Virus record (IMG/VR): IMGVR_UViG_3300008050_007409
DNA from: a virus
Reading direction: 5' to 3' (one strand)
DNA length: 64,000 bases
Part shown: positions 2,744 through 63,915 of the stretch, in pieces
Layout: each line of letters begins with the position of its first letter
How positions within the stretch are numbered: the stretch's first letter is position 1
Position numbers and translations under genes: made by a program
The notes under the pieces: generated by a model
The model's input: only the letters and a program-made list of their open reading frames with translations
Told to the model about the DNA's origin: nothing
Databases searched by the model: none

Positions 2744-3593
2744 CGATGACCTTCTCCTCTTCCGCTTCCTGGGCAAGAAGATCTTCGTAGGAGGGGATCC
2801 TGCGAGTCTTCTTCCGCTTCCGCATCCGGAACGCCGAGAGTTCCTTCTTGATCGTATCAGCAAGGCCGGCACTGCGCATGTCCCGACGCTGCTGGATGGC
2901 GTCATCGGCCACTCGAGCCAGGGCGGCGATTCCCATGATGTGGGTGCCGCTGAGCTTCGTTCCCTCCGCCCGGGCGATCTGCACCTGCTCATTGGCCAGG
3001 GCGATCACGTTGTCGTAGAACTCCTCGTCCTCGATCCGGTGTCGCAGTCCCAGGATGCCGTAGGTGGCTGCCATGTCGCCCGAGTAGGCGATCAGCTGGG
3101 TCTGGTTCTCGTCTTGCACCTGGAGGAAGGCGAAGATCCCAGACTGGCTCATCTCGGCCAGGTTCCAGAAGAAGTGGGCGTAGAACTCCAAGGCCTTCAA
3201 GCTGGGGACACGGAGCTCCCCGTACTTCAGGACCATCTGATCCCGAGCCTTGGACACGTTCCACTCCAGGAGGAGCAGGTGCTCGAGGTCGGGGCGCGGT
3301 CCGGCCTCGCCGGTAGAGGCGTAGAGGAAGTCGATGGCCTTGGTGGTCTCCGGCCCCTGCTTCCAGAGGTCCAGGATCTTCCGGTCCCTGAGCCACCGGT
3401 ACAGCCGAGTGTTCGTGGGGGTCAGGTCTGCACGCCAGTACGAGGGGATGCCTCCCAGCTCACGTCGGAGCTGGTTGAGATCTGACTCCTTAGGCTGCAC
3501 CAGCGACTTCGACTGGCAGACGCTCATGATCTCTGGATCAGTGAGCTGTCGGGAGAGGAGGTAGAGCAGGTACCGGCGGTGCGGGTACTCCAC
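2712..3593 (-). CDS. Hypothetical helical protein (possible terminase small subunit, by position only)
   Basis: 293-aa ORF translationally coupled to its neighbour and lying upstream of the terminase gene. Confidence 0.6.
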   Translation of the reverse strand: MEYPHRRYLLYLLSRQLTDPEIMSVCQSKSLVQPKESDLNQLRRELGGIPSYWRADLTPTNTRLYRWLRDRKILDLWKQGPETTKAIDFLYASTGEAGPRPDLEHLLLLEWNVSKARDQMVLKYGELRVPSLKALEFYAHFFWNLAEMSQSGIFAFLQVQDENQTQLIAYSGDMAATYGILGLRHRIEDEEFYDNVIALANEQVQIARAEGTKLSGTHIMGIAALARVADDAIQQRRDMRSAGLADTIKKELSAFRMRKRKKTRRIPSYEDLLAQEAEEEKVIDVTAKLVERG

Positions 3594-4138
3594 TACTTCC
3601 GCCAGGGCGCTCGGACACGGTGGTCGATGGGGATGCCCTCACCCCCTTCCCGCAAGGACTTCTTGATCCCGCGACCGGCCCCACGGCCGATGTTCTCGGA
3701 CTCGTTCGTGATCTCGTGCACCAGCTTCTTGGTGTGCTGGTCCATGGCCTCGCTCAGCTCCCTGCGGGCGTTCTTCACCACCTTCTGGGAGCTGTTCTCG
3801 AACTGATCCCCGAGAGGCTTGGCGGCCTCCCTCGCTGAGTCGATCACCCAGGCGCGAGCCCGTCCCGCCAGGTGAGGGAGGGTGGCCCCTACGGACCCGC
3901 CAAGAGCGGTGGTGCTGATGCCTCGAAGGACTCGGAAATCCCTACGGTCCTTCCACTCCTTCGAGGAGATCAACCCCTGGCGGAGTCGGTCGTCGTCCTT
4001 CCACTGGTCGTTGATGGCCCCCTCGAAGCCTCTCTTCGCACCCAGGGCTGCACCCATGCCGGACGTGATCGCGACGGTAGGGATCTTGTACTTGGCCACC
4101 TTCTCCATCTCGGAGGCGAAGGCATGGAGCTTGGACAT
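3593..4138 (-). CDS. Basic protein with FxxExxKxA leader and glycine-rich hydrophobic segments
   Basis: Starts MSKLHAFASEMEKVA; contains GMGAALG and GGSVGATL segments; RBS GGAG upstream. Confidence 0.75.
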   Translation of the reverse strand: MSKLHAFASEMEKVAKYKIPTVAITSGMGAALGAKRGFEGAINDQWKDDDRLRQGLISSKEWKDRRDFRVLRGISTTALGGSVGATLPHLAGRARAWVIDSAREAAKPLGDQFENSSQKVVKNARRELSEAMDQHTKKLVHEITNESENIGRGAGRGIKKSLREGGEGIPIDHRVRAPWRK

Positions 4139-4148
4139 CGGAGGTCTC

Positions 4149-6149
4149 CTACTGGATCTTGCGCCGAATCTCCATGAGACCTCCGATCACATCGCTGAGG
4201 CTCTTCATGGCACGACAGGCCGCGGACTCACGTACCTCGTCCAACCCCATGCGGCTGGCGACGACGATCTCGGCGAGCTTGTTGGCGGTCTTCTCGAACT
4301 CCGGGAGGGCTTCGATGAAGGCCGAGACGTTCTCGGGGGTGATGAAGTTCAAGGAGAGGACAGCGTCCAGGTTCTCCCGGTCGATCACCACGGACGCCTG
4401 CTTGTAGAGCAGGTGCGCCTTGGGCATGCACAGCAGAGCGACCTCACGCACCAGGTCGTGGCGGAGGTGGTCCGTGTTCCTGACCACGGCGGCAGCCTGC
4501 TTGATCATCGCCGCAGTCGCCAGCTCCTCGGACACCACCCGGCGGGTGCCAGGGATCTTGAGAGGGCTGGAGGCCGCGGCCGACTTCTCCAGGACGGTGG
4601 GGATCTGACCGCCAGGGACTCCCAGAGCTCCCAGGGCGAAGCCTGCCTCCTCCACGCTCATGACCCGGTCGTAGCCGGCGAGCTCGGCGTTGCGGCCGCG
4701 CAGGCTGTAGGACGTGCCGTCCGAGACCACCTCGACGGCGTTGATGTCCATCGCCACCTTCTCCGCCTGGAGCTGGTTGATGAGCTCGGGGTTGTCCTGG
4801 ACACTGATCTGCTTCCCACGCAGCGGGAGGAAGACCATCGATCCGGGGATGGCGTACTTGCCGGGGCCGAGGCTGGCGATCTTCTTCAGGCTGGGGGAGG
4901 GCATCAGCTCGATGGACTCCCCGGTGCTGACTCGGACGGCCAGGTAGCTGGCGACCTTCTCGGCGCCCTCGCCAGTCGTGACCCGGTTGGTGATCTTGAC
5001 CGGCTCGGTGGCGATGCCCTGAGCTCCGGCCTGGTAGACGAAGACACCCAGGCCGGAGGGGGTGCAGGCTGGGAGGGTGAAGTCCTTGACGTGTACGCCG
5101 GCCAGCTTCTGGAGGGCGTGGCACTCCTTCCCGGAGAAGACCGCGTGGTCCAGCATGTCGCCGTCGAAGGTCAGGGTGCGGGGTACGACGATGCCCAGGA
5201 TCTCCCTGGTTCCGGAGAGGGCCTGGTAGACGCCGACGGTCGACGCATCCTGAGCCCGCTTCTCCATCCGAGGACCGTCCGTGGTCGAGTCCAGGGTCAA
5301 GACCAGGCTGCCCTTCTCGCGGAGCGTCGCCATCTTCTCCATGCCCAGCAGCTGCTGGACCTCGACGACGTTCCGGCGCTCCTCGACGACTCGGAAGCAG
5401 CGGGAGTTGGCGTGCTTGACCAGGTAGCCAGCCCCATCCTCTGTGATCTGGATCACGTTCGGAGGGGTGTTGACCCGTCGCTGGACTCGGATGTCGCCGG
5501 CGGTCTTCTCCTTCCCACCGCCCACGGCGAGGAGAGCGGCCTTCAGTGCGGGAGTGCCCTCGAAGATGGTGCGGAGTCCCTTGGACGATCCGACCTTCAC
5601 GAAGAGCGCCTTGCGGTCCTCCTCTCGGATGGTGTGCGCCACCTTCTCGAGGACGGAGCTGGTCTTGAAGAAGCCGCCGGAGCCACCGGATCGGCCGGAG
5701 CTCGTGGGGGGTCCGATCTGGTTGCCGATCCCTCCGCCGAGGACGTCGCCCTTCTTGGCCGGCGTGCCGAAGACGTCCGGTTGGAACAGCACTCGCTCGA
5801 CGGCCTCCTTGGTCATGGGCTGGAGCTGGCCGTCGTGCGAGAACACGTCGAAGGGGGACAGGTTCTTCTCCCGCACGATGATGGGGAAGACGACCAGGCT
5901 CTTCTGCTTGATCGCTGCGTCCTTCTCCATGCCCATCGGGTAGACCAGCAGCTTGCCGATCCCGTAGCCGCGGCTCCCGTCCACGCGCTCCAGCTCCGCG
6001 TCCATCTCGAAGGACTTGAGGAAGGGCATGTCCTTGTAGGCGGCGGAGATGATCTCAGGAGCCCAGTCCGTGGGCTCCTTCTGGAGCCGGGTGTCCAGGG
6101 CCACCTTCTCGATCCCCACGGAGGTGTCGACAGTCAGGCTGATGTGCAT
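4149..6149 (-). CDS. Putative head/inner-core protein with many K-x-A sites
   Basis: 666 aa with strong codon bias and repeated EKVA/EKTA/KIAS/KQAA/EKSA motifs. Confidence 0.75.
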   Translation of the reverse strand: MHISLTVDTSVGIEKVALDTRLQKEPTDWAPEIISAAYKDMPFLKSFEMDAELERVDGSRGYGIGKLLVYPMGMEKDAAIKQKSLVVFPIIVREKNLSPFDVFSHDGQLQPMTKEAVERVLFQPDVFGTPAKKGDVLGGGIGNQIGPPTSSGRSGGSGGFFKTSSVLEKVAHTIREEDRKALFVKVGSSKGLRTIFEGTPALKAALLAVGGGKEKTAGDIRVQRRVNTPPNVIQITEDGAGYLVKHANSRCFRVVEERRNVVEVQQLLGMEKMATLREKGSLVLTLDSTTDGPRMEKRAQDASTVGVYQALSGTREILGIVVPRTLTFDGDMLDHAVFSGKECHALQKLAGVHVKDFTLPACTPSGLGVFVYQAGAQGIATEPVKITNRVTTGEGAEKVASYLAVRVSTGESIELMPSPSLKKIASLGPGKYAIPGSMVFLPLRGKQISVQDNPELINQLQAEKVAMDINAVEVVSDGTSYSLRGRNAELAGYDRVMSVEEAGFALGALGVPGGQIPTVLEKSAAASSPLKIPGTRRVVSEELATAAMIKQAAAVVRNTDHLRHDLVREVALLCMPKAHLLYKQASVVIDRENLDAVLSLNFITPENVSAFIEALPEFEKTANKLAEIVVASRMGLDEVRESAACRAMKSLSDVIGGLMEIRRKIQ

Positions 6150-8246: not shown

Positions 8247-9814
8247 CAGAGGCTCTCACTGACGAATGTTGAGGGCAGAGCCACGGGGCTCGGGATGCCG
8301 CTGGCGCCGACTGAGCTCGCTCCCAGGATGGGAGCACCCGTCACGTAGTCGACGGGGTGGGTGAGGGTGGTGACGACTGCGCCGGCGGCGCCCGCCATGC
8401 CCATGAAGACTGTCCCAAGCTGGTCGATCGAAATCTCCCCAGCCGCTGTGGTGATCTGGATTCCAGTGGCGTTGATCTCCACCTTGGACAACTCGCCGAG
8501 CATGTTCTCCAAGAAGATGGCTCCGGTAGGGGAGATCCGAATCTCTCCGAAGGGGGCCAGCTTCGTGAGCCCCATCGTGATGCGGAGGTCGCTGGTGATT
8601 CCGTGGATGCCGATCTCACCTTGGTTGCAGGTGAGCTGGTAGCCCACATCCTCGCCGGAGAGCCAGTTGGCGTTGGTGATCGTGACCTCCTTCTTCCCGC
8701 TGATGATCTCCTTCGTGTTCCCTCCGACCTTCTCTCGGTAGTCGGCACCGGCGGTGATCTGAGCTGTGCCCGTGGCGACCTCCGCCAGGTCTCCGTTGAC
8801 TGTCCTCTCGACTGCGCCCTTGATCTCTTCAGTGAGCCTGCCCGTGGTCCTGGTGACGGGTCCGCTGATCGTCTCCGTCAGGCTGCCGTTCACCGAAACC
8901 GCCCTGTCCGTACCCACGCTGAGGGAGTCGGACCTGTGCACGACCACGTTCCTGGAGCCGTAGTCGACGGAGCTGATGCCTCGAACCTGCTGGAAGAAGT
9001 CCGCAGCGATGAACTCGATCTTCTTCCCCTCCAGGTTGACGAACTCGCCTCCGCCCTGGATCCTCTGGCAGTTGCCGTCCTTGTCGATCCAGACCTGGTA
9101 GTTGTTGTTGATCAGCAGACGGCCGACGATCTGGCCGTTGCTGCCGTTGATGACCGCCTGGGCGTCCTCGTCAGAGATACGACCCAGCCCCAGGTCGATC
9201 ATGGGGTCCTCGTCGGAGAACTCCTTGACCTGCAGCCGGAACTCGACCGGGTCCTTTCCCGAGCCGTGGGAGTCGTCGCTGGTCCTGGACTTCCACTCGA
9301 GCTTGCCGCCGGCGGCGTTCTGCTCCCAGTTCGAGAAGAACTCCCGGATGGTGTCCTGCAGAGGGAGGTAGATCCTCTGGCTCATCTGCGTGGAGCCGAT
9401 CTCCAAAGAGCCGCCCTTGCGCAGGATGATGAAGGGGTTGGACCCCGGCCCGGAGATCATCTGATCGCCCTGACCGAGCACCGGCCTGTTCATCCGGTGG
9501 TCGTTGGGGTCCTCCTCGTCGTCCGCGTCGTCGAGCTGCCTGGGGAGGCTGGCGCCGGCCATGATGAAGGGGGCCTTCTGGTCGCTGGGGCGGCAGAGCC
9601 AGACGGGCGTGTTGACCTCCGGCATGAAGAAGTTGCCCTGGCCGTCCGCCCCCACGTTCATGGGGTTGATCGGGACGCCCTCGTGGACGCAGTTGTCCGG
9701 CGTCACCACCGTGCACGTGTAGGAGGTGTTGTTCACCTCCTGGATCATCCCCATCGTCACCTTGGACTGGTGCTGGTGGATGTTCGTGGATCCCTGGAAT
9801 CGCCTCTTCCACAT
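8246..9814 (-). CDS. Baseplate central spike / hub protein (gp5/GpV/VgrG-like)
   Basis: N-terminal OB-fold signature (GQGNFFMPEVNTPVWL), then beta-helix repeats (VGTDRAVSVNGSLTETISG, VNGDLAEVATG, VGGNTKEIISG) and a C-terminal tip-like THPVDYVTGAP. Confidence 0.78.
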   Translation of the reverse strand: MWKRRFQGSTNIHQHQSKVTMGMIQEVNNTSYTCTVVTPDNCVHEGVPINPMNVGADGQGNFFMPEVNTPVWLCRPSDQKAPFIMAGASLPRQLDDADDEEDPNDHRMNRPVLGQGDQMISGPGSNPFIILRKGGSLEIGSTQMSQRIYLPLQDTIREFFSNWEQNAAGGKLEWKSRTSDDSHGSGKDPVEFRLQVKEFSDEDPMIDLGLGRISDEDAQAVINGSNGQIVGRLLINNNYQVWIDKDGNCQRIQGGGEFVNLEGKKIEFIAADFFQQVRGISSVDYGSRNVVVHRSDSLSVGTDRAVSVNGSLTETISGPVTRTTGRLTEEIKGAVERTVNGDLAEVATGTAQITAGADYREKVGGNTKEIISGKKEVTITNANWLSGEDVGYQLTCNQGEIGIHGITSDLRITMGLTKLAPFGEIRISPTGAIFLENMLGELSKVEINATGIQITTAAGEISIDQLGTVFMGMAGAAGAVVTTLTHPVDYVTGAPILGASSVGASGIPSPVALPSTFVSESL

Positions 9815-12800
9815 CAGTACTGCCCTGCCCAGTCCTTCCCGAGTACCTCCTCACCCTTGCCGAATTCGGAGGCATGCGCCGCCGCGGGGATCGGATGGTA
9901 GCCGTGGATGTCGCTCTTCCAGCCCTCTCGTACCGCACGCTCCATGGTGTCGTTGAGCTTCTGGAAGTTCAAGCGTGCCATCCAGTCCTCCTGCATGGCC
10001 AGCGGCATCTGCCCGACACCCTTGAGGGTGGGCGTGTATCGCACGTCCTTCTTGGACGGACCGGACACGTCGTTCCAGTGCTTGATCTCACTGATGCGTC
10101 GGAAGTCACCCGGCGACCAGTCCGGGTTGTCCCCAGGGTCGTCGACCTCCGCCAGGTTGGTGATGGCGCGGACGATGACCTCGATGTTGCGGCGCTTCAC
10201 CTTGGCCGCGTTGTTGTGCAGGACGCTCTCGATCTCGTCCGACATCAGGTCCTGCACGTCCTCGACGTCGCGGAGCTCCAGGAGCTTCCGGGGATCGACC
10301 ACGCCATCCGAGAGCGCGTCGCCCTTCCGGACCTCCTGTCCACGGCGCACCATGAGCTCGTGATCACCTCGGACGTAGTGCTTCTTCCCTCCGATCTCCA
10401 CATCCCAGCCGCCCTGGGGAGCTTGCCGGACCGTGGACACCTTCCCGCCCCTCTCAGCCAGCGGGGCCGAGTCCGGGAGGTTCTTGGGCAGCGTCAGGAG
10501 GTTGTTCAGGGTCTGGAAGGTGTTCGCGGAGCGGGCTGACCGGCCCTTGGCGATGCCTCCGGTGTGGAAGGTGTTGAGGCTGAGCTGGACGCTGGGCTCT
10601 CCCACGGCCTGACCGGCGATGACGCCGATGTTGGTGCCGATGTCCGACTCCTTCCCCATCTCGTTGAGGCCCAGGCACTTCTGGCACACCCCGTTCTTGG
10701 CCCGGCACCGGAGGGGAGAGCGGACGGGGAGGTCGGACCTCTTCGACTTGCGGGCAGCGGCGACCACGCTGGGCGTGACCATCGACCCGGCCTTGTGGAC
10801 CTTGCCGTCGAGCTTCACTGAGGTGGAGAGGTAGCGGTCGACCAGGTCCCTGTTGTCCAGGTCCAGCTTGATCCCCGCGGTGGTCCCGCAGTCGCCCTTG
10901 GAGACGACCTGGTCCATCGTGGTGTTGTTGATCCGCTTGGACAGGTAGCCGGGGTCGCGGACGCCCTGCACCTTCTGCACAGCGCCCTTCCGAGCTCCGT
11001 GCATCGTGGTCCAGTAGGAGCCCAGGTCCATGCCCTCCGAGTAGCTCCGGTCGATCATGAACGGGACCACCCGGCTCTTGGCGTCCATCACCAGCGCAGG
11101 GGTGCTGATGATCTGCTTGAGCTGCTCAGGCTTCCCTCGGGATCCGGAGATCACCATCTCGTAGATGTTGGTGGGGTTGTCCCTGAGCGCCAGATCGCTG
11201 AGCCTGTCGATCTCGTCGTCCACCTTCTGCAGGTGAGCGATGGCCTTCGCCTTGCCCTTCTTCTTGTCCTTGGTCGTGGACCGGATCCGGTCGGCCTCGC
11301 GCTGAGCCCCGTCGATCATCTTGTCTCGCTGGGACTTGTTGACCACCTGGAAGTCGTCCAGGCCGATGGAGAAGCCGATCTCGTAGCTGTGGTCGTTGCC
11401 GATGTCCTTGAAGCGGTTGGAGACCTCGGCGTAGAGGTCCGGGTGGTTCTTGGCGATGTCGGCCAGGATGGTCTTGGTCCCACCCTTGTCCATCAGCCGC
11501 ATCTTGCCGACAGGCTTCTTCCCGGTCTCACGCATCTCGGCAGGGAGCACGGCCTCGATCTCCAGACGACCCAGGGTGGTCGGGTCTCCACCCACCTTGA
11601 TCTGGTCTGTGAGCTTGATCTTGCCCTGCATCTTGGCCCGCCGGGCGTCGTGCATGTCCTTGAAGGCGTGGGAGGTCTTCCTGCCCGGCTTGCTCGCCAG
11701 GTACATCCCCAGGAGGGCTTCATGCCCTGGGGTATACATGACGGATCCGTCGGTCGGGTTGAACAGGTTGTTCGAGGGGAACATCTGCGTCGCCTCCCGA
11801 GCCGCCTTGCTGGTGACCGGCAGGTAGACGCTCATGGCGTCGCCGTCGAAGTCGGCGTTGTAGCCGGACGTGACCAGCGGGTGGATCTCCAGGGCGTTGC
11901 CCTTCACGATCCGAGGCTTGAAGGCCATGACGTTGAACTTGTGCAGCGACGGGTCCCGCTTGAGCAGGATCGGCCGGTCCTTCATGACCCGCTCGAGGGT
12001 CTTCTGGGCGGGCACGGACTTCTTGTTGATGGCCTCCCTGGCATCCAGTGGGTTCCAGTTCATCCGGACGAGCTCGCGCTGGACGTAGGGCGCGTAGAGG
12101 CCCCAGGCGATCTTCTCGGGGACGCCCAGCTCGTCGATGCCCTGGTGGGGCTCAGGGATGATGATGGACCGGCCCGAGTAGGCCTGCCGCCTCTTGATCA
12201 GCGTCTTCTGGAAGTAGCCGTTCTTGGACCGCCCCTTGCGGGAGCCGTCCTTGCTCTTGGTCTGCCCGGAGATGATGTCCAGGACACCGCGGTACTCGCG
12301 GGTGAGGCTGGGCCCGTTGCCGTTGAGCGCCGAGAGCGCGTCGTAGACGGCGACCCGGTCCTCGGCCAGGCCGTACGACGGGATCCCAGCCTTCTTGGCG
12401 TCGGTCATGGTCTGGTTGACCGTGCCCAGGTCCTTGTAGAGGTAGTTCAGATCCGTGTTGGAGAGGGAGCCGTCGTCGTTGACCACCGGCGGGCGGAAGA
12501 CGGGGGGCAGGACCGGGACCGCCCGCATCATGTAGATCGAGGGGTCGAGGTTGTTGTCCTCGAGCATCTTGAAGACGCGGAGCCGCTTGTGGACCTTGGA
12601 GCGCGACCCGGCCTTCAGGCGCTTGGCCCGCTCCTCCAGCTCTGCTCGCTCCTTCTTCACGTCGACCTGCTTGAGCATCTCCTCGAAGGCGGCGCCGCCG
12701 ACCTTGCCGTTGACCTTGACCTCCCCGGCCAGGATCTTGCGGTAGCGGGTCTTGTCGATGTCGAGGACCTTCTGGACGGCCTCCTCGAACAGGGGGTTGG

Positions 12801-15800
12801 GGAGGGGCTCCGCGAGCTCGATGTGGCTCCACTTCGTGCCGTTGAGTCCCCCGGTGGTGGCCGGGTCGAAGATCCCTCCCACCTCCGGCTTGATGTCCTT
12901 CCCCATGACGGCGCGGTTGGGCTTCGTGAGCTTGCCCGAGCTCATCTTGCGGACCTGGGCCTCCGTGAAGGGCATCAGGGAGATCTGCGACCCCTCCTTC
13001 ACGGGGTTCACCCGCATGGAGCGGAGGTAGTTCTCGAACTTGTCGTAGGCGAAGGGGACCTTGGCCGGAGGGATCCGCTTGTTGTCCCGGATGGCGTCCC
13101 AGAGCGCGTCGTTGCGCGTGCTCTTGTAGGCGTACATCTCGTGGAGGTTGTCGCGGGCGCCGTGGGCCAGCATGGCGTAGAGCCCCAGCTCGCCCAGGGA
13201 CTGACCGCCGTGCGGAGCTCCTCCTGTCGGGGCGTGGTGCACGTCCCACCCAGCTCCGGGGTCTCCGGACCTGACGGCGATCTTCTTGCCCGCCTGGTGC
13301 TTGAGCTTCACGATGTACTGGCGGCCGGTCAGCACGTCCTGATCGAAGGGCTTCCCCGTCTTGGGGTTGATCAAGGACTCCTTGTCCGTGAGCCCCAGGG
13401 CTGCCAGGTCCTTCTTGACCATGGCGAGGTAGTCGGTGTCGCCGTCGAAGTTCCTGACCCGGTAGGTCTCGCCGGTCTTCTCTGCGACCTTGCCGGCCGC
13501 GGTCTCCAGGACCTGACCCAGGTTGATGCGCCCAGGCACGCCCAGAGGGTTCAGGGCGATCTCGACGTGCTTGTTCTCGCCGTCCTCGTCCATGAACGGC
13601 ATCTCCGCATCCGGGACGATGCGGGTGATCACGCCCTTGTTTCCGTGTCGGCCGACGAGCTTGTCTCCGATCTGCGCAGGCTCCTCGGTCTTCACGTAGA
13701 CCATGATGCTGCCGTCGCTGCGGCGCACCACGTCGCTGACCACTCCGGGGTAGGGCTTGTCCCAGGTCATCGAGCGGTTCCGGAACTTCCTGCTCCGCCC
13801 GCGCCGGAACTCTCGGATGTCCTTGAGCTGCTGGCTGGGCGTCGGCGGCTTGAGCACCAGTACCAGCGGGTCACCCTCGACGACCTTGGAACCGATCTTG
13901 ATCCGTCCATCGTCGTCGATGCTGGCCAGCTGATCCTTGTCGAAGTCGCTGGGGTACTGAGACAAGAACTTCTTCCGCTCGGTGATCGCCAGCTTGTCCA
14001 GGCGTGCCTGGTTCGGGTGCACGTGGAGCGAGGTCAGCTTCTTCGCCGCCGTCTCGCTGATGACGATCCCATCCTCGAAGTTGTAGCCCTGGAACGGGAT
14101 GTAGGCGGCCCGGAGGTTGGTGCCCAGGGCCAGGGTACCGTCCTTGGTGAAGGTGGAGTCGACGAGGAGGTCCCCCTCCGCGACCTTGTCTCCGGCCTTG
14201 ACCTTGACCTCGGAGTCGTAGAGCGAGCCGCCCGGCAGGGCGAAGTCCCGGTAAAACTGGACCTCGTGCTTCTTCCCCTTGCGGTCCTTGATGATCACCG
14301 CGTCCTTCCGGACCTGGTCGACGGTGCCTGCGATCGGTGCCTTCCGCGCCGAGTACTCTCCGAAGATCTCCTCGAACGACTGGTCGCCGTCTGTCTGCAC
14401 CTGGACCAGGGGAGCCTCCCGCTCCTTCAGAGGCACGGCCTGCTCCGCCTGCTTGGCGGCAGTCATGGCCCGGTTGCCCTGGTTGTTCTGCAGGAAGGGC
14501 ACCAGGTTCGAGCTCACCCCGAACACAGCCCGCGGGCTGGGGAGGATGTAGTCGACCTCCTTGGGGCTCACGTAGGTGATCTCCCCATCCCGGAGTGCCT
14601 TGACCCGCTTCCCACGAGCCTTGCGCCCCTTGTACTGGTCCGGGAAGGAGATCACCTTTCCAGCGGTGTCCGCCGGCGACAGCTTCTCGGTCCTGCCGGT
14701 CCTGGCGTTCTTGAAGCGGGAGACGACGGTGTCGCCCTTCTTCTCCGTGCCGAGGGCCAGGGACAGGGTGATGCCCGTCTTGTCGCCCTCCGGCGTCCTC
14801 ACGGGGTCCAGGAAGCCGAACTGGCTGGCGTTCAGGAGCTTGGCCTCGTCCAGGACGGCGAAGGGGTTGGCGATGCCTCCCTGCTCTCCTAGGATGGTCG
14901 TGGCGGTCTGCCCGGCCAGCATCCCGAGCGGGTTGGTCTGGTCCGGCTCGTTGGCGAGGCTCTGGCTGAAGAACTTCTTGATCGACGGCGTGACGGTCCC
15001 GGAGGGGACCACCTTCTTCAGATTGCGCCGCTTGTCGATGTTCCACCGGATCTTCCGCTGGATGGTCGAGGCGTCCCTCCGGATGCGTCCTGAGATCAGG
15101 TCCTCAGCCGCGTTGACCGACTGGAATTCCATCGAGGACTTGTTGTCCGGCTCGCGGTCGCCGCGGGAGATGGACAGGAGCTGCTTCGAGGATTCGATCA
15201 GCGTGTCACCGTCCACGCTCTTGAAGCCCTTGCCCAGGGTCCGCTTGGTGGTCTGCTGGTCGACTTCCGTGCGGGCCAGGTGCTCGGCGAACAGGCCGGC
15301 GTGCTCGGCGGGGTTCTCCGGCAGAGATCCGTGCACGGCCTTGTAGAACTTGCCGTAGACCCGCTCGGGCTTGGAGTAGCGCTTGTTGCGCTCGAGCAGC
15401 TTCTTCCCCCAGGCGCGCTCCAGGGCATCGTCGGAGACGCCCGCCGACTTGAGCAGGGGGTAGGCCGCCATCTTCGAGGTGCCGACGTGCACCAGGAACA
15501 GCGCTCGCTTCGGATCAAACTCCATCTTGAAGGAGCGGCCGCGCCTCCCCTCCTGTCCGGTGAGGGCCTCGTGGTTCCCGAGGTTGAACTCCGCGTAGAG
15601 CTTGTCGTCTCGGCTCCTCCGGTGGTAGACGCCGGGCCGGAGACGGAGCTGGTTGAAGATCTGGTACTCGCTGCCCTTGTGGATGTAGCCGAATCGGTCT
15701 GTAGTCCGGGGGAGGTGCCCGACGATCACCTTCTTCCTGTCGATCTCCTTCATGTCGCCGTCACGGCCCTTCCGCATCAGGGACATGTCCGCGTAGATCG

Positions 15801-15996
15801 GCACCTGCCAGGACTTCCCGCTTCGGATGGCCTTCTGCTGGTCCCGCAGGTCGGAGGCACTCTTGGTGTCCCTCACCTCGACGGAGTGGACCACCAGCTT
15901 GGAGTTCTTGGTCTCAACCTGGAGCGCCTCCTCGACAGCCTCCGAGACCTTCGCGGAGAGCGCCTCGAACTGCTGATCCGGATTGAGGTGGGGCAT
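9814..15996 (-). CDS. DNA-directed RNA polymerase, beta and beta' fused in one 2060-aa polypeptide
   Basis: Beta motifs: DQTNPL, RTPEG, GYNFEDGI, GDKLVGRHGNKGVI, NPLGVPGRINLGQ, GGQSLGE. Beta' motifs: YSGRSII, KRDPSLH, YNADFDGD, SGSRG, GARKG..DPGYL, GEPSVQL..TFHTGG. No internal stop. Confidence 0.96.
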   Translation of the reverse strand: MPHLNPDQQFEALSAKVSEAVEEALQVETKNSKLVVHSVEVRDTKSASDLRDQQKAIRSGKSWQVPIYADMSLMRKGRDGDMKEIDRKKVIVGHLPRTTDRFGYIHKGSEYQIFNQLRLRPGVYHRRSRDDKLYAEFNLGNHEALTGQEGRRGRSFKMEFDPKRALFLVHVGTSKMAAYPLLKSAGVSDDALERAWGKKLLERNKRYSKPERVYGKFYKAVHGSLPENPAEHAGLFAEHLARTEVDQQTTKRTLGKGFKSVDGDTLIESSKQLLSISRGDREPDNKSSMEFQSVNAAEDLISGRIRRDASTIQRKIRWNIDKRRNLKKVVPSGTVTPSIKKFFSQSLANEPDQTNPLGMLAGQTATTILGEQGGIANPFAVLDEAKLLNASQFGFLDPVRTPEGDKTGITLSLALGTEKKGDTVVSRFKNARTGRTEKLSPADTAGKVISFPDQYKGRKARGKRVKALRDGEITYVSPKEVDYILPSPRAVFGVSSNLVPFLQNNQGNRAMTAAKQAEQAVPLKEREAPLVQVQTDGDQSFEEIFGEYSARKAPIAGTVDQVRKDAVIIKDRKGKKHEVQFYRDFALPGGSLYDSEVKVKAGDKVAEGDLLVDSTFTKDGTLALGTNLRAAYIPFQGYNFEDGIVISETAAKKLTSLHVHPNQARLDKLAITERKKFLSQYPSDFDKDQLASIDDDGRIKIGSKVVEGDPLVLVLKPPTPSQQLKDIREFRRGRSRKFRNRSMTWDKPYPGVVSDVVRRSDGSIMVYVKTEEPAQIGDKLVGRHGNKGVITRIVPDAEMPFMDEDGENKHVEIALNPLGVPGRINLGQVLETAAGKVAEKTGETYRVRNFDGDTDYLAMVKKDLAALGLTDKESLINPKTGKPFDQDVLTGRQYIVKLKHQAGKKIAVRSGDPGAGWDVHHAPTGGAPHGGQSLGELGLYAMLAHGARDNLHEMYAYKSTRNDALWDAIRDNKRIPPAKVPFAYDKFENYLRSMRVNPVKEGSQISLMPFTEAQVRKMSSGKLTKPNRAVMGKDIKPEVGGIFDPATTGGLNGTKWSHIELAEPLPNPLFEEAVQKVLDIDKTRYRKILAGEVKVNGKVGGAAFEEMLKQVDVKKERAELEERAKRLKAGSRSKVHKRLRVFKMLEDNNLDPSIYMMRAVPVLPPVFRPPVVNDDGSLSNTDLNYLYKDLGTVNQTMTDAKKAGIPSYGLAEDRVAVYDALSALNGNGPSLTREYRGVLDIISGQTKSKDGSRKGRSKNGYFQKTLIKRRQAYSGRSIIIPEPHQGIDELGVPEKIAWGLYAPYVQRELVRMNWNPLDAREAINKKSVPAQKTLERVMKDRPILLKRDPSLHKFNVMAFKPRIVKGNALEIHPLVTSGYNADFDGDAMSVYLPVTSKAAREATQMFPSNNLFNPTDGSVMYTPGHEALLGMYLASKPGRKTSHAFKDMHDARRAKMQGKIKLTDQIKVGGDPTTLGRLEIEAVLPAEMRETGKKPVGKMRLMDKGGTKTILADIAKNHPDLYAEVSNRFKDIGNDHSYEIGFSIGLDDFQVVNKSQRDKMIDGAQREADRIRSTTKDKKKGKAKAIAHLQKVDDEIDRLSDLALRDNPTNIYEMVISGSRGKPEQLKQIISTPALVMDAKSRVVPFMIDRSYSEGMDLGSYWTTMHGARKGAVQKVQGVRDPGYLSKRINNTTMDQVVSKGDCGTTAGIKLDLDNRDLVDRYLSTSVKLDGKVHKAGSMVTPSVVAAARKSKRSDLPVRSPLRCRAKNGVCQKCLGLNEMGKESDIGTNIGVIAGQAVGEPSVQLSLNTFHTGGIAKGRSARSANTFQTLNNLLTLPKNLPDSAPLAERGGKVSTVRQAPQGGWDVEIGGKKHYVRGDHELMVRRGQEVRKGDALSDGVVDPRKLLELRDVEDVQDLMSDEIESVLHNNAAKVKRRNIEVIVRAITNLAEVDDPGDNPDWSPGDFRRISEIKHWNDVSGPSKKDVRYTPTLKGVGQMPLAMQEDWMARLNFQKLNDTMERAVREGWKSDIHGYHPIPAAAHASEFGKGEEVLGKDWAGQY

Positions 15997-16257: not shown

Positions 16258-18177
16258 TCAGATCCCCGCGCCACCTGCGCGACGTGGAGGACGCTGCTCT
16301 GGGAGCGGCTGCTGCTCCAAGGCGGTCATGACCGCCATCTTCTGCTGGACCAGCTCAGAGAGCCTCGGGCTCTGCTGCGCCATGTTCTGCAGGTAGCCGG
16401 CCCTCTCCTGGTCCGGCATCCGCGAAAGCCTCTTCGCGAGGGCCTCAGCGTAATCGATGAGGTTGACCCCGCCGCCCTGAGGCGGCTGACCGGCTGCGGG
16501 GTTTCCTTCGGGTGTAGGTCCGGGCTGCGCGGCCATCCCCTGCGGGTGCTGCATGCCAGGCATGCCACCCTTCTCCTGCATCTTCTTCTGGGCCTCCTGC
16601 ATCTTCTTCTGGGCTTCGATCTGGTACTTGGTCTGGATCTGCTGCATCTCGCCCTGGATCTCAGCCTTGTAGAGCGAGTCGAGCTTGGCCACCTCGAGGT
16701 TGCGCCTGAGCTCCGTCTCGATGAGCCTCGTCTCGTCCAGGGCGTCCTTGTCGAACTCGGACAGCAGGGTCTTGTCGCTGATCTTCTTGAGCTGGTTGAG
16801 GCTCATGAGCAGCTGCTTGGACTGGAGGTCATCCGCCATCTTGAAGGCCTTCATGTGGGCCTTGGGCTGCTTCCAGGACATGAAGCGGGCGATGTTGGGC
16901 AGCAGGAAGTGGTTGAGGAAGCGGTGGTGCTCCTCCCGGTAGTTCAGGAACCGGTTCTCCAGCATCCGGAGGGTCACGCTCGACCCGGTCCAGCTCATGC
17001 CTCCGAAGACGAACTCCTGCGGAGCTCCCATGCCGGTGATGATGTGCTCAGACCAGACCCGGATCTCCTGGGTCGGCATGAGGGACCGGCCGTCGCCGCC
17101 GATGCGAGTGTGCCCGATGGGCAGCGGCATGATCGGCTTGTAGTTCGGGTCCTGCCGCCAGCGCTTCAGCTCCACCTCGACCCGACGCTTCCAGTCGGAC
17201 AGGTTGACCATCGTGTACGGGCTGGCGTTCGGATCCTGTGTCGAGGGGAACAGAACGTCGAGCGGGACCAGGTGCTCGAGCATGACGGCCTCGTTGGCCT
17301 TCTTGAGCACCTGCAGGTAGAAGCTGTCCTTCAAGGCCGGCAGGATCGGCGGGTAGGCCCAACCGGAGTCGTTGTCCTGCACCGAGGGCGTCGGCGCCTT
17401 GAAGTGGTAGAGGTTCCGCTCGACGAGCTCGATCGGGCGGCGAGTCTTCATCGCCTTGATGAAGGAGTCCGGCATCTCCTCGAGGTAGTGCCGGTGCTTG
17501 GTCAGAACCCGCTTCCTGATCCGCGCCGGGATGTTGTAGTAGTACCGGGTCCGCTGGGTGATCGGGTTGAAGTCGATGTCGACGTCAGACGGGTTCCACC
17601 GCAGGAGCTTGATGTCCCGGTAGGAGTGGTACCACTTGTCGTCGACCTTGGCGGGGCCGTTGTGGAAGCACGTCGGGCAGTTCAGCGTGTACTTCCAGCT
17701 GGAGAAGTCCCACTGGACCTTGAACTTCAGCCTCTTGATCCGCTTGCTGAATCCGCAGTTCCTGCACGTCAGGTACTTGTGGAACGGGTAGACGATCGAC
17801 ACCAGGCAGTTGCCGTAGGCGTGGTAGTCGAGGCCGGCCTCGACCTGGAAGCGGTGGATGTCCAGGACGTTGTAGAGGAGGTCCTCCCACCGCTTCTTCT
17901 GGTGATCGAAGCCCTCTCGCTCGTCGTAGTCGAGGATCACCCGCGTGATCGGGTACTCCGCCATCTTGCGGATCACCGCACTGATCAGCGGGTTGGCCAG
18001 GGCGTGGTAGCGGCACCACCGGAACAGGTGCTTGACCGTGCTCGGCAGGTCCATGTGCGCCACGTCCCACCAGGGGGACGGGTAGCGGAAGTTGGACGTG
18101 CGCCCGTCCAAGTTCCCATGCTTGTAGCCTGAGAACCTGAAAGAGCTGCCTGGTCCGAACGTGCCGCCGAGAGCCAT
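16258..18177 (-). CDS. Portal protein with zinc-ribbon insertion
   Basis: 639 aa with portal-like segments (NPLISAVIRKMAEYP; IITGMGAPQEFVFGG..WTGSSV), a CRNC...CPTC insertion and a Q/P/G-rich C-terminus. Confidence 0.75.
   Translation of the reverse strand: MALGGTFGPGSSFRFSGYKHGNLDGRTSNFRYPSPWWDVAHMDLPSTVKHLFRWCRYHALANPLISAVIRKMAEYPITRVILDYDEREGFDHQKKRWEDLLYNVLDIHRFQVEAGLDYHAYGNCLVSIVYPFHKYLTCRNCGFSKRIKRLKFKVQWDFSSWKYTLNCPTCFHNGPAKVDDKWYHSYRDIKLLRWNPSDVDIDFNPITQRTRYYYNIPARIRKRVLTKHRHYLEEMPDSFIKAMKTRRPIELVERNLYHFKAPTPSVQDNDSGWAYPPILPALKDSFYLQVLKKANEAVMLEHLVPLDVLFPSTQDPNASPYTMVNLSDWKRRVEVELKRWRQDPNYKPIMPLPIGHTRIGGDGRSLMPTQEIRVWSEHIITGMGAPQEFVFGGMSWTGSSVTLRMLENRFLNYREEHHRFLNHFLLPNIARFMSWKQPKAHMKAFKMADDLQSKQLLMSLNQLKKISDKTLLSEFDKDALDETRLIETELRRNLEVAKLDSLYKAEIQGEMQQIQTKYQIEAQKKMQEAQKKMQEKGGMPGMQHPQGMAAQPGPTPEGNPAAGQPPQGGGVNLIDYAEALAKRLSRMPDQERAGYLQNMAQQSPRLSELVQQKMAVMTALEQQPLPEQRPPRRAGGAGI
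16573..16614. repeat. 21-bp tandem duplication within the portal gene (AQKKMQE x2)
   Basis: ctcctgcatcttcttctgggc repeated twice. Confidence 0.8.
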
Positions 18178-21440: not shown

Positions 21441-21467
21441 CAGGTGTCTCCGGGAGAGCAGGATCTT

Positions 21468-21487
21468 CAGTCTACCTCGTATAAGAG
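21468..21487. promoter_or_regulatory. Divergent promoter region between the morphogenesis and replication blocks
   Basis: TAGACTG on the minus strand (21474-21468) and GTATAAGAG on the plus strand (21479-21487). Confidence 0.45.
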
Positions 21488-21537
21488 GTCGACACGCACC
21501 CATAGCATCCAGCAGCCTCAGGAGGCGAGTAGATCCA

Positions 21538-57758: not shown

Positions 57759-58814
57759 CTACGCCAGCATGAGCGCTCCGTAGATGCGCCTCCTCTGTGC
57801 CGGCGACATCTGGTCCAGGTGGCCCTTTCCGGTGAGATCCTCGGACATCGACATGAACGCCCCGGAGCCGGGGAGATGGCTATCAGATTCGATCCCCTTG
57901 GACTTGGCGAGTCTGTGGATCTGAGCCGGAGAGGGTCCGGAGCCCGGTCCCCGCTTCTCCACCCCAGCTCCTACAGCCATGCCAGCTCCAGGCATCATCA
58001 AGGCCAGCGTCAGCTTGCCCTTCTTGAAGTACTCGTGCCGGCCTCCGTCTCCCTTGATGCCGGCGGCCTCACGCTGCAGACGGGACGCCCTCTCCGACCC
58101 TCTCGAAGCTGGGAAGCCGCCCTTCGGGGCGATCTTCACAGAAGAGATCGGAGATGCTCGAACCTCCTCTCCTGGGAGCTCCTTGAAGCCTTTGGAGAGG
58201 ACCTGATCGATCTTCTTCGTCCGGTAGAAGTCTGCCTGCCAAGCCCCACGCTTCCTGGCCATGAGCTGGGCCTTCACCACCTTCGGGTCCTTCCTCATGT
58301 GGACGAAGACGTCGAAGCTACCGGGATCGGCTTCGGCGAGCATGTGGGTCTGCTCGTAGACTCCGGGCTTGACCTGCTTGCGTGAGAGGGTTGAGATCTG
58401 CTGCGCAGTCATGTTCGGCTTGTCGTAGTGGAAGACCCTCGTACCGGCTTGCTCCGCCAGGGCCTTGGCCGTGGTGCTCTTGCCCGTACCTCCGGTACCC
58501 GAGACTGCGATCCGAGACTTCTTCGGATCCACTCCTGCGTCCTTGAGCGCCTTCAAGATCCGGGCAGCCTCGTCCTTCGCTCCTTGAGGTAGGGGTCGAG
58601 CTGCATCCACCTTCCGAGAACCTCCCTTGCCGACTCCCTTGATCATGGCCCGGAGATTGGCCCGAGTGCCCGGAAGTCGACTGAGGCCCAGAGCCGTTCC
58701 CGCCGCGGCTCCGATGGCGACCCCTCTCCAGGGGAACTTCCGCCTCTTCCGAGAGGCTCCCAGCTTCTCGATCTCGTCCCAGAAGTAGGTCGCTGACGTG
58801 GTGGAGATGTTCAT
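57759..58814 (-). CDS. P-loop NMP-kinase-like protein with FxxExxKxG leader and glycine zippers
   Basis: Leader YFWDEIEKLG; GVAIGAAAGTALG; Walker A IAVSGTGGTGKST. Confidence 0.72.
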   Translation of the reverse strand: MNISTTSATYFWDEIEKLGASRKRRKFPWRGVAIGAAAGTALGLSRLPGTRANLRAMIKGVGKGGSRKVDAARPLPQGAKDEAARILKALKDAGVDPKKSRIAVSGTGGTGKSTTAKALAEQAGTRVFHYDKPNMTAQQISTLSRKQVKPGVYEQTHMLAEADPGSFDVFVHMRKDPKVVKAQLMARKRGAWQADFYRTKKIDQVLSKGFKELPGEEVRASPISSVKIAPKGGFPASRGSERASRLQREAAGIKGDGGRHEYFKKGKLTLALMMPGAGMAVGAGVEKRGPGSGPSPAQIHRLAKSKGIESDSHLPGSGAFMSMSEDLTGKGHLDQMSPAQRRRIYGALMLA

Positions 58815-59485
58815 CAGGACACCGTGACCGTGATGGTGGGGAGGGTGATCGTCGGGTGCTGGAGCCTCTCGATCACGTCGCCATCAGGCTCCTGGTACTC
58901 GTTGACCTCGTCGGTGTCGACCTCGGTGATCTCGATGGTGACGGTCCCGGCCTTGAGGGCGCGGAAGGACAGGTTGGCCACCTGCACCACCACCGTCTCG
59001 TCGCTGATCTCAATCTCCAAGGCCCCCTGCACGGAGCTCCCCGCCTCCTCGCCGTTGGAAAGGGTGGTCGTGATGTCCAGGGTGAACTGCTCCTCGACCT
59101 CGGCCTCATAGTCATCGCCGTCGTCGAACTCGATCTCGGTGATGTAGGGGAAGATGAGCGCCACCAGGTCGATGGAGCTCTCCTCTGGGACCACGACGGT
59201 TCGGACCAGGTCCGATTCCCTGCCTGGGATCTCGATCCTGACCGTAGCGCCCTGGTAGAGGTCGAACTCGACGTAGCCGTCGCCGTCCGACTTGGCGGTC
59301 TGGTGCTCGTTGAGGATCAGCGTGTTCGAGCTCACCGCTGCCGGGATGTGGATGTTCCGCACCGTGAGCTTCTCGCTCACCAGAGCGTCGCCGTGCAGGT
59401 CCTTCAAGTAGCCGGACACCCGACACATGTCTGCGTCGGGTTCGCCGCTGCCGGAGATCGCTGTGCCTGTGACCGTGTACCCCAT
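58814..59485 (-). CDS. Ig-like virion protein
   Basis: Beta-rich; KSDGDGYVEFDL and ISDETVV...RALKAGTVTI (Big-2-like). Confidence 0.62.
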   Translation of the reverse strand: MGYTVTGTAISGSGEPDADMCRVSGYLKDLHGDALVSEKLTVRNIHIPAAVSSNTLILNEHQTAKSDGDGYVEFDLYQGATVRIEIPGRESDLVRTVVVPEESSIDLVALIFPYITEIEFDDGDDYEAEVEEQFTLDITTTLSNGEEAGSSVQGALEIEISDETVVVQVANLSFRALKAGTVTIEITEVDTDEVNEYQEPDGDVIERLQHPTITLPTITVTVS

Positions 59486-60282
59486 CAGGATCCTCCTCGG
59501 GCCTTGCCTGTCCAGTAGGCCTGTCCAGGCCCGCTGACGTGTCGCTTCCCGTCTGGGGTGAAGCTGTAGGACACGTTGTCCTTCCCGAGGACCTCGGACA
59601 TCTGACCCTCTGCTGTCATCCTCGAGGGGACCTTCACCACGCGCTTCTCCCCGATGGGGACGTCGCGAGCCGCCTTCCCACCCCAGGGGACGTGCTTCCG
59701 GGCCTTCCTCGCCCTGTCCAGGTAGAGGTCGAAGCTGTGGGACTTCTTCTGGCTGCGCAGGCGCTCCAGGACGGCCTCGGCCTCCCTGTGGCCCTTCAGC
59801 GTCTGCTCCAGGTCGTGCGCTACCTGGAGCTGCTCTGTGGAGCGGCCAACGCCCTTGACCTGCCCCTGGGCCTCCCGCAACTGCTTGATCCTCGCCCCGG
59901 AGCCAGAGACGTTGGACTTCTGCTTCCGGATGGCGATGTCCAGGGGCTTGAAGATCCTCTGGAAGGCCTCTCGGCTGAGTCTGGCGTCCCTGGCGGTGAG
60001 ATGCTTGCGTCGGATCGCGGAGGCCCCCAGACTCAGCGCAGCGGCTCCAGATCCACCCATGACGGCTGCCTTGCCCAGGCGCTTGAGGAAGTCCTGCTTC
60101 TCGCTCTTGGAGAGGTCCCTGCCGTAGATCTGACCGTTCTGGAGCCAGTAGCGGGGCTCCTTCGTCTGGAAGGTCTTGGTGGCGAGGAAGCCTCCAGCGC
60201 CGCCCCCCACGACCAGGCCGGCCAGAGCTTCCAGAGCTCTGGCCTTGGCAGGCGTCATGGCGGCAGTCTTGATCTGAGGCAT
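59485..60282 (-). CDS. Basic protein with N-terminal KTAA and glycine-rich hydrophobic segments
   Basis: Starts MPQIKTAA; LAGLVVGGGAGGFLA. Confidence 0.68.
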   Translation of the reverse strand: MPQIKTAAMTPAKARALEALAGLVVGGGAGGFLATKTFQTKEPRYWLQNGQIYGRDLSKSEKQDFLKRLGKAAVMGGSGAAALSLGASAIRRKHLTARDARLSREAFQRIFKPLDIAIRKQKSNVSGSGARIKQLREAQGQVKGVGRSTEQLQVAHDLEQTLKGHREAEAVLERLRSQKKSHSFDLYLDRARKARKHVPWGGKAARDVPIGEKRVVKVPSRMTAEGQMSEVLGKDNVSYSFTPDGKRHVSGPGQAYWTGKARGGS

Positions 60283-61112: not shown

Positions 61113-61115
61113 GGA

Positions 61116-62217: not shown

Positions 62218-62220
62218 TGA

Positions 62221-62763
62221 TCAGTACCCCGGACCGCTGCTTCCGCCACCGTAGCCCTGCTTCTTGTTCTTCTGGATGTCGTAGACGCGCTTCCCACCGA
62301 CAGCGGCTCCCGTGAGGCCGAGGCCGGCGGCGGTGCCGATGGCTACACGGCGGAGGGTGGAGGATCCGCCCTTCTTGTTGGTGGTGTTGGGGAGATCCAC
62401 ATGGGTGGGCGACTTCCGAGCGGGCTTCCCTTCCAGGATCCGGAGGGCGGAGTCCTGGTTCCCCCGTCCGGTACGGATCGCCTTCTTGGCCGCATCCCTC
62501 TCCACCTGGATCTGGGCCGTGGCCTTGCTGCGGGCCGCCTTCGCTCTGAGCCTGGATGCGTCAGCCATTCGGTGATCATCCGTGAAGGGCATGAACTTCT
62601 TCCACCCTCCCCAGCCAGTCGCGTTCCCTACTCGTTGGTGTTGCTTGGCGGCTCTGTTCGCCTGGGAAACCAGGCGATGTGCCTGACGGCTGTAGGCGAT
62701 CTTCTCCATCTCGGTCCAGAAGGCCTGGGCGATGGCGCGTCCGCGGGTGTCGAAGCTGTTCAT
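62221..62763 (-). CDS. Basic protein with FxxExxKxA leader and C-terminal glycine zipper
   Basis: AFWTEMEKIAY; VAIGTAAGLGLTGAAVGG. Confidence 0.72.
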   Translation of the reverse strand: MNSFDTRGRAIAQAFWTEMEKIAYSRQAHRLVSQANRAAKQHQRVGNATGWGGWKKFMPFTDDHRMADASRLRAKAARSKATAQIQVERDAAKKAIRTGRGNQDSALRILEGKPARKSPTHVDLPNTTNKKGGSSTLRRVAIGTAAGLGLTGAAVGGKRVYDIQKNKKQGYGGGSSGPGY

Positions 62764-62769
62764 GTTGAT

Positions 62770-63915
62770 CTACCTGTAGACGACGGTGGTTTTGTTGCCA
62801 GCTGCCAGACCAGCGCCGCCTGCCAGCATGGTGCCGGCACCGCCCATCGCCCCCATGACGTTGGTGCGCTGATGCCTATTGAGGCCTCCCCACCACATCC
62901 CCATACGGGACTGACCCTGCTGCATGGGACCTTGGATGGGGGCTCCTCCCAACCCGAAATGGCGCTGGGCCCACGGCTGCTCTGCGGCGACTGGCGGTGC
63001 TCCTGTCGGAGCAACAGGACGACCTGCGGTTGCAGCGGGGTTGACCGGCTGAGCCGGCGCTCCCCCAACCACCGGCTGAGTAGCCGTGGGGGTCGGAGTC
63101 GGCTGAGCTGCCGTGGTGGGGGCAGCCGCGGGCTTGGCTGCGGCCTGCCTGCGAGCGAGCTCGGCTTCGATCTTCTTCTTCCGATCTGCCTTCCGCTGAC
63201 TCTTGGTCATCTGAGGCTTCTTGGGAGTGGCAGCCTGCGTAGGGGCGGGAGCAGTAGGACGTGCGGCAGTAGGAGTGCCGACGACCTTGGGCTGACTCAG
63301 GGCAGCCGATGCCGGTCCACGTGATCGGTCGGCGAGCGCAACGGATGCCGGACCCTTCCGCGCTCCGGCCTGGGCTCCCCCGGGAACCTGGACCCGTGCT
63401 CCAGGTCCGGGACCGGACGGAGGCTTCGGCATCTCGATACGAGCGCGAGGGGTACTGGACAGCGGAGCGGGCTTGGCACCGGTGAGGTCGATGGTGGGCT
63501 TCCGAATCTTGCTGGGGCTCACCCCGCGGTAGGCCGACTGGAACTGAACAGAGGCGTTGTCAGCGACAGCCCGAGCTTTGTTCTGCACGGTTCGCTTGGC
63601 TCGGCCGGCCGCGGCCTGGGCACTGCGTCCGAGGTTCTGAGCACTGCGTCCGGCACCAACCACACCAGTTCCGAGGCCTTCGAGTCCAGCGGCAGCTCCA
63701 CGACCTACGGCCCGGCCTCCTCGCGCCAGGTGGCCGAGTCCTCTGGCTACAGTACCTACGAAGGCGATCTTCTCGATCTCATCGTTGAAGGAGGCCACGG
63801 CGAGGTACTCGTTGGCCCCTGCGCGTGCCAACGCCTCGTCAGCAGCCCGGCGGAAGGATGCTGCGGATCCTCGGTGGTCCTGCGCGATCTTGTTCAGGGC
63901 TGAGGCGTGGGTCAT
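62770..63915 (-). CDS. Pro/Ala-rich basic protein with FxxExxKxA motif and C-terminal glycine zipper
   Basis: LNKIAQ near the start and SFNDEIEKIAF at about aa 43-52; MGAMGGAGTMLAGGAGLAAG at the end. Confidence 0.72.
   Translation of the reverse strand: MTHASALNKIAQDHRGSAASFRRAADEALARAGANEYLAVASFNDEIEKIAFVGTVARGLGHLARGGRAVGRGAAAGLEGLGTGVVGAGRSAQNLGRSAQAAAGRAKRTVQNKARAVADNASVQFQSAYRGVSPSKIRKPTIDLTGAKPAPLSSTPRARIEMPKPPSGPGPGARVQVPGGAQAGARKGPASVALADRSRGPASAALSQPKVVGTPTAARPTAPAPTQAATPKKPQMTKSQRKADRKKKIEAELARRQAAAKPAAAPTTAAQPTPTPTATQPVVGGAPAQPVNPAATAGRPVAPTGAPPVAAEQPWAQRHFGLGGAPIQGPMQQGQSRMGMWWGGLNRHQRTNVMGAMGGAGTMLAGGAGLAAGNKTTVVYR

Follow-up and report, generated by a model that had tools for sequence, protein, structure and literature searches.

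Seven Minus-Strand Genes Share an N-Terminal Tag

The subject of this study is a short motif, F-x-x-E-[L/M/I]-x-K-[I/V/L]-[A/G] (hereafter the tag), which is found near the start of seven basic proteins encoded by IMG/VR virus record IMGVR_UViG_3300008050_007409; the window denotes the whole 64,000-nucleotide (nt) stretch of this record that was analyzed. All seven genes are on the minus strand. The first in window order (3593..4138) encodes a protein of 181 amino acids (aa) with a net charge of +11, and its tag reads AFASEMEKVA (4094-4120). A 265-aa protein of net charge +27 is encoded at 18184..18981, directly upstream of the portal gene, with the tag YFGLELAKIA at 18937-18963, and beside it lies the gene of a 130-aa, glycine-zipper-like protein (18984..19376; 22% Gly, net +14; AFNDELTKIA at 19326-19352). 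The smallest tagged protein, of 98 aa and net +10, is encoded at 20020..20316 (AFSDELEKIG at 20266-20292). Toward the other end of the window, a 351-aa protein (57759..58814; net +32) with a weak P-loop (Walker A) carries YFWDEIEKLG at 58758-58784, and proteins of 180 aa (62221..62763; net +22) and 381 aa (62770..63915; net +35) carry AFWTEMEKIA at 62695-62721 and SFNDEIEKIA at 63763-63789 (residues 43-51), the last of them with an earlier ALNKIAQ at residue 9 as well. One further basic minus-strand protein, of 265 aa and net +27 (59485..60282), begins MPQIKTAA, that is, with a short form of the motif at its extreme N-terminus.

The six-frame translation of the window contains exactly seven matches to the strict pattern, against 0.0035 expected from composition, and all of them are in frame with open reading frames (ORFs) that are supported by G+C content at third codon positions (GC3). 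These are the same seven ORFs that an earlier, sequence-only reading of the stretch had listed, and the short start that it noted for 59485-60282 was found as well. The Phe of the motif is ORF residue 7, 7, 9, 9, 11, 15 or 43, and every motif lies inside the first 51 residues. Three further tagged genes were seen on the same genome to the left of the window. The plus-strand replication module holds no long motif in the same search, in agreement with the earlier remark that replication genes lack it. When a position-weight matrix was built from the seven sequences, a check proposed in that reading, the tags scored 25-32 bits and the next best match in the window 11 bits, a clearly bimodal distribution. 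Codon identity across the seven tag-coding segments is uninformative due to the strong GC3 codon bias.

Beyond the motif the proteins are basic and unrelated, as had been claimed. No significant pairwise similarity was observed among the bodies (best BLASTP E 0.2), which are often glycine-rich; the net charge of the tagged proteins ranges from +10 to +35, while the neighboring tail proteins are strongly acidic. Comparison of the tagged bodies with Pfam and PHROG assigned no family except the weak P-loop in 57759-58814. A related-locus search of IMG/VR with two tagged proteins gave no relatives, a homologue search with the 351-aa protein found none, a search of the ESM Atlas gave no match above 0.81, and a literature search on the motif strings returned nothing relevant. 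The tagged bodies are orphans.

Two features of the bodies were considered and discarded. The sequence HEAGH (HExxH, zincin-like; residues 116-120 of 18184-18981), a possible sign of metalloprotease cargo, is absent from the positional counterparts in five relatives and was therefore treated as probably a chance occurrence. A C-terminal Gly-Tyr on two tagged proteins was dropped because an aromatic last residue is present in only 12 of the 107 tagged proteins from IMG/VR described below. With a domain signal in one of seven proteins (the P-loop) and HEAGH not conserved, the proposal that the tag marks enzymatic effectors is weak. Next to one tagged gene, the longest ORF at 19373-20122 (minus strand) overlaps 20020-20316 by ~100 nt; judged from orthologue N-termini, its true start is probably the ATG at 20023, which would leave a 4-nt ATGA overlap. 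Read from that ATG, its product is acidic, 216 aa long and devoid of K-x-A sites.

The Tag Is Lineage-Wide and Modular

An exact back-translated search of IMG/VR for F-x-D-E-L-E-K-I-A returned 118 stretches, mostly from contigs of 50-200 kb, with 107 unique instances. A start codon lies no more than 15 residues upstream of the tag in 104 of the 107, the bodies are net basic in 100 (median charge +10, median length 115 aa), and Ala, Ser or Gly precedes the tag Phe in 96. In all five multi-hit records that were tested, genes for the protease family and for the fused RNA polymerase described below are present together, and there are 3-7 tags per record compared with 0 for a reversed control pattern. 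In two multi-hit records, small genes stand in arrays of at least 10, and every gene opens with a leader peculiar to its lineage whose last residues are the universal tag (one record has MxxFEQIKEAAFIDELEKIA, the second MNxFEFGFFDELEKIA). The same kind of pattern is known from T4-like phages, at their hypervariable loci for internal proteins. Among the metagenomic relatives compared, which have polymerase identities of 41-56% and G+C contents of 49-67%, the long N-terminal tag is again carried on basic proteins; the fifth relative (L002, 42-43% polymerase identity) has only degenerate forms. The tag is a real, strongly non-random and lineage-wide feature. Comparison of these sequences also supports modularity of the leader, which is conserved on unrelated, fast-evolving basic proteins across the phage lineage, and the modular part of the earlier "address label" proposal is strengthened accordingly.

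Tandem arrays of tagged genes suggest duplication, and one could regard the tagged proteins as diverging paralogues of a small membrane protein (e.g., a lysis, superinfection-exclusion or channel protein), whose N-terminal helix would serve oligomerization or membrane targeting and would be unrelated to the capsid. Glycine-zipper or small-xxx-small hydrophobic segments are present in many bodies (58 of the 107 in IMG/VR), and three tagged genes of the window adjoin baseplate genes. However, no similarity is detectable between the bodies, the tag is acidic, unlike a signal peptide, and it is also carried by proteins that are not membrane-like, such as the 351-aa P-loop protein. Furthermore, the last residues of the tag are the K-x-A code, which is restricted to proteins of the head module and to the linkers of the phage protease itself, as described in the next sections. 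A membrane protein family is thus considered quite unlikely.

A Short K-x-A Code Is Concentrated in Head Genes

The core of the tag corresponds to a shorter code, h-x-K-[T/I/V]-A-[S/A/G] (h, hydrophobic residue), and K-[T/I/V]-A recurs many times per protein in the head module, which lies to the left of the window. K[TIV]A was observed 31 times in this module against 3.4 expected, about ninefold enrichment, and 19 times against 6.3 expected in the portal-polymerase block, whereas it is not enriched in the tail/baseplate genes (4 observed, 3.4 expected) or in the replication genes (7 observed, 4.7 expected). Consistently, KTA, KVA and KIA rank top in an unbiased tripeptide enrichment of the head module, and 52 sites give the logo [G/E/D]-[L/M/F/I]-E-K-[T/V/I]-A-[S/A]. 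In the portal blocks of the five relatives, h.K.A[SAG] occurs 9-12 times where 1.2-1.9 are expected, and no occurrence was found in their non-structural genes. In Salmonella phage Arash, a distant cultured relative, the only proteins with several sites are those of the head module (gp220-226, including the protease gp222 and the capsid protein gp226) and gp242. The K-x-A core is a head-specific code.

These results qualify the claim that the motif stands near the protein start. The claim holds for all seven tagged proteins of the window, but the K-x-A core also recurs inside many head-module proteins, and even the long form is occasionally internal. A small conserved family starting MPF[KQV]S..Q.R..W (L012 20612-21151; L139 18277-18921; L002 22856-23056; L138 2139-2564) has the long tag in mid-protein or at the very C-terminus and is an exception to the picture of an N-terminal leader.

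Two minus-strand genes of the window encode polyprotein-like proteins. The first (4149..6149; 666 aa) has seven h-x-K-[T/V/I]-A sites, at residues 15, 169, 215, 398, 423, 464 and 620, and its orthologues keep the N-terminal F/I-E-K-V-A plus an internal EKIAG. Its AlphaFold2 model is poor, with a predicted local distance difference test score (pLDDT) of 57, too poor to tell whether the sites fall in linkers; four of the seven are in low-confidence segments. The second (20319..21503; 394 aa) has five K-[T/V]-A sites, at residues 52, 108, 214, 267 and 320, and K and A are invariant among orthologues at four of them. In both proteins the flanks of the conserved K/A sites vary among orthologues. 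Left of the window, two acidic paralogues (L006 14373-15125 and 15199-15585) begin MN..LA.IY...G[FL][DE]K[TV]A and have three K-x-A sites each, ~30-90 residues apart; they resemble scaffold or core proteins and would be cut up into short pieces.

The Code Marks the Linkers of the Maturation Protease

The protease and capsid genes of the head module are 3.8-9 kb beyond the left end of the window, and several small acidic proteins are encoded in the same module. By tblastn, the 548-aa protein (L006 8346-9992; phrog_18299) is similar to proteins annotated as prohead proteases in Rhodococcus phage E3, Gordonia phages and phage G. It had no match among PDB sequences in profile and single-sequence searches, and the fold search alone matched: the AlphaFold2 model (pLDDT 79, catalytic domain at residues 36-262) was aligned with T4 gp21 (5jbl_A) at a Z score of 9.4 and a root-mean-square deviation of 2.8 over 131 residues, and with herpesvirus assemblins at Z scores of 6-8. 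Alignment of 25 protease homologues of 30-75% identity shows that His134 and Ser190 are conserved. On these grounds, the 548-aa protein is a maturation protease of the gp21/assemblin fold, and the prohead protease that the sequence-only reading had advised seeking is thereby in place.

Importantly, three K-x-A sites are conserved in the 25 homologues, one N-terminal, one after the catalytic domain and one near the C-terminus. At the N-terminal site K33 and A35 are invariant, alignment gaps and insertions begin immediately past the Ala of K-x-A, and in the model the sites fall in disordered linkers of low pLDDT (18-35, 263-315 and 492-505). Even in Bacillus phage G, K-x-A sites are retained at either end of the protease; cleavage sites are not reported in the paper on that phage. 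The layout is as expected of self-processing and substrate sites, and the small residue after Ala together with the gap pattern suggests a cut after Ala, as in assemblin. The code is also present in the major capsid protein (349 aa; L006 11982-13031; phrog_2522), of which 114 of 120 homologues have K-x-A at exactly 9 residues ahead of a conserved anchor.

The tag could alternatively be an uncleaved docking peptide, an amphipathic helix that binds the scaffold, the portal or the capsid interior and stays on the mature protein, with repeated K-x-A as multivalent binding sites. The hydrophobic residues of the long form are spaced i, i+4 and i+7 (F, L/M/I, I/V), which is typical of a binding helix; the residue after Ala is unconstrained in the tags, and the site of the capsid protein is inside a conserved region. 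Such a peptide is nevertheless unlikely, because sites in the disordered linkers of the protease family, with gaps right after Ala, are the pattern of gp21/assemblin self-processing. Besides, many internal sites are Gly-flanked and non-helical (G-G-L-x-K-x-A), and the spacing of 5-15 sites per protein is polyprotein-like.

If the sites are cut, the enzyme might be supplied by the host rather than the phage. In Staphylococcus phage 80-alpha, the capsid and scaffold proteins carry an N-terminal motif of ribosomal protein L27 that is cut by the host protease Prp, a precedent for an N-terminal motif common to unrelated phage proteins. However, a Salmonella phage and environmental phages of 42-67% G+C all keep the K-x-A code, a range that implies very different hosts, and it co-occurs with one phage protease family that bears conserved copies at its own domain borders. 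Cleavage by a host protease is therefore regarded as highly improbable.

A Capsid-Targeting Leader Is the Favored Explanation

With a probability of roughly 60%, we consider the tag to be a longer, N-terminal version of the code that marks substrates of the head-maturation protease encoded by the phage itself, a leader comparable to the capsid-targeting sequence (CTS) of T4, by which proteins would be loaded into the head and trimmed. The short code h-x-K-[T/I/V]-A followed by a small residue would be the recognition site of this protease, which probably cuts after the Ala. The code marks the inter-domain linkers of the protease, the capsid N-terminus, small acidic proteins that may be scaffolds, and the two polyprotein-like proteins by the portal gene. 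On the small basic glycine-rich orphans, a conserved amphipathic segment stands in front of the code ([A/S/G]-F-x-[D/E]-E-h-x-K-I-A), and the F, L/M/I and I/V at i, i+4 and i+7 may form a recognition element. The resulting leader of 10-20 residues would work like the T4 CTS: it would bring the protein into the assembling prohead core and then be clipped off, and the basic body would stay inside the head with the DNA. For the tagged proteins, we infer cleavage, the scissile bond, packaging and ejection from these patterns.

Several observations weigh against this explanation. Of the seven tagged genes, three are in the baseplate/tail operon block rather than beside head genes, as is the short-form gene at 59485-60282. 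The long motif is sometimes internal or C-terminal, and the residue after the tag Ala is unrestricted (A, L, V, S, I, G), unlike that of the internal sites. Foldseek matches the protease fold with weak E-values (0.014), and the K-x-A of the capsid protein is in a generally conserved N-terminus and could thus be structural. No dispersed tagged genes were found in the 123 kb of Arash that were scanned. Finally, the polymerase is the most abundant protein of the Arash virion, its beta subunit having the highest number of spectra in the proteome (PMC10585845), yet it is untagged, so the tag is not required for packaging and cannot be the sole route into the head. The N-termini of the fused polymerases in the lineage of the window have no K-x-A site and no tag. 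In Arash, the polymerase beta protein (gp206, L003 21974) begins MPKSASE, a possible K-x-A-S at the extreme N-terminus.

A more far-reaching version, which we hold only tentatively and think doubtful as a whole, is that jumbo phages with this polymerase, which occur worldwide, use the tag throughout the lineage as an address code for the capsid. Basic glycine-zipper proteins, encoded in arrays and evolving fast, would be loaded beside the polymerase, cut at Lys-x-Ala by the assemblin-like protease, and ejected to build or protect an entry route for DNA and polymerase. In that case the proteins injected by uncultured phages could be read from their sequences, and the tag could be reused as a cargo-loading handle.

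Comparison with Known Head-Targeting and Processing Systems

In T4, propeptides of 10-19 residues target internal proteins (IPI-III, Alt) to the core and are removed by gp21, and within the CTS the N-terminal part targets while the C-terminal residues direct processing (PMC9026906). The tag is likewise a short N-terminal leader common to small, basic and otherwise unrelated proteins, on hypervariable cargo genes, and it would end in the cleavage motif of a gp21-fold protease, a link that here rests on the common K-x-A code; the motif also marks the capsid protein, scaffold or core proteins and the protease itself. It differs from the T4 CTS in sequence (A-F-x-D-E-L-E-K-I-A, unrelated to MKTYQEFIAE), in its site (K-x-A, not L/I-x-E), in beginning 3-15 residues past the start codon, in the many more tagged genes per genome, and in being known from sequence alone. 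The lineage itself, with a 349-aa capsid protein and a fused polymerase, is not T4-like. Since a modular leader ends in a head-specific code that is also present in the linkers of a gp21/assemblin-fold protease, the T4 precedent invoked by the sequence-only reading fits well, and the system would be a functional analogue of the T4 CTS outside the T4 sequence family. The principle of a capsid-targeting leader combined with a prohead-protease code is already known, and the sequence variant is new.

S/A/G-x-E is the site at which many proteins of the head and the ejection machinery are cut in phiKZ by the protease gp175 and in SPN3US by gp245 (PMC10052503, PMC5694885). Those jumbo phages resemble the present one in their virion RNA polymerase and gp21-like protease, and in the many head proteins with N-terminal propeptides, several motif copies per propeptide. 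The code differs (K-x-A here), and so does the polymerase, which is one cellular-type chain here and a split multisubunit enzyme there. We know of no conserved long leader described for phiKZ-like phages.

The release and maturation sites of herpesvirus assemblin have the form h-x-A↓S. Besides the protease fold, the likeness extends to Ala at the presumed P1 position with Ser/Ala at P1′, and to sites that follow the catalytic domain or lie close to the C-terminal end of the protease-scaffold fusion. The invariant Lys two residues ahead of the Ala is peculiar to the present system, which belongs to a phage and not to an animal virus. Encapsulin cargo-loading peptides are comparable, being short conserved sequences by which diverse cargo enters an HK97-fold shell; they are usually C-terminal and uncleaved, involve no protease and have no sequence similarity to the tag.

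If the capsid-targeting explanation is true, a ten-residue peptide and a three-residue code would suffice to list head-internal and probably injected proteins from sequence, and such lists would apply to jumbo phages of an abundant uncultured lineage with a cellular-type RNA polymerase of its own. The capsid-targeting problem that T4 solves would have been solved here by a second sequence, paired with a phage protease of apparent Ala-at-P1 specificity, like herpesvirus assemblin rather than T4 gp21. The cleavage prediction can be tested directly in cultured relatives with the short code (Arash and Vibrio phages D69/D148/D181).

Genome and Lineage of the Window

The window has a G+C content of 64% and comes from a 165,236-bp metagenomic contig (window position = record position - 46,183). 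The large terminase gene (2..1513, minus strand) is cut by the window edge, the full-length protein being 575 aa. Between the genes of a gp5-like spike (8246-9814, minus) and the portal protein (16258..18177, minus) lies the gene of a single-chain beta-beta′ RNA polymerase of 2060 aa (9814..15996, minus; Pfam Rpb2_6 and Rpb1_1/2/5). The portal protein matched the annotated portal of Arash by tblastn (30% identity, E 2e-72). The replication module occupies 21.5-39.2 kb on the plus strand, and a baseplate/tail-fiber block with Baseplate_J occupies 39.3-57.7 kb on the minus strand.

Cellular-type beta and beta′ polymerase modules in a large tailed-phage genome, here in one 2060-aa chain, are what defines the RNA-polymerase-encoding Caudovirales lineage (mReC) known from metagenomes (PMC7481178), and on sequence grounds the phage fits this lineage. 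Distant cultured relatives with common terminase, portal, polymerase and protease are Salmonella phage Arash and Vibrio phages D69/D148/D181. The Arash virion proteome comprises 116 proteins with metabolic enzymes among them (PMC10585845), and is therefore too permissive as a test of packaging.

Hundreds of polymerase homologues of ~2050 aa were found, from contigs of 100-200 kb. Many homologues are longer, at 2400-2800 aa, with Pfam matches to LAGLIDADG or intein-splicing domains, a sign that the polymerase gene of relatives may contain inteins or inserted homing endonucleases. In Arash, the polymerase gene is split by inserted genes.

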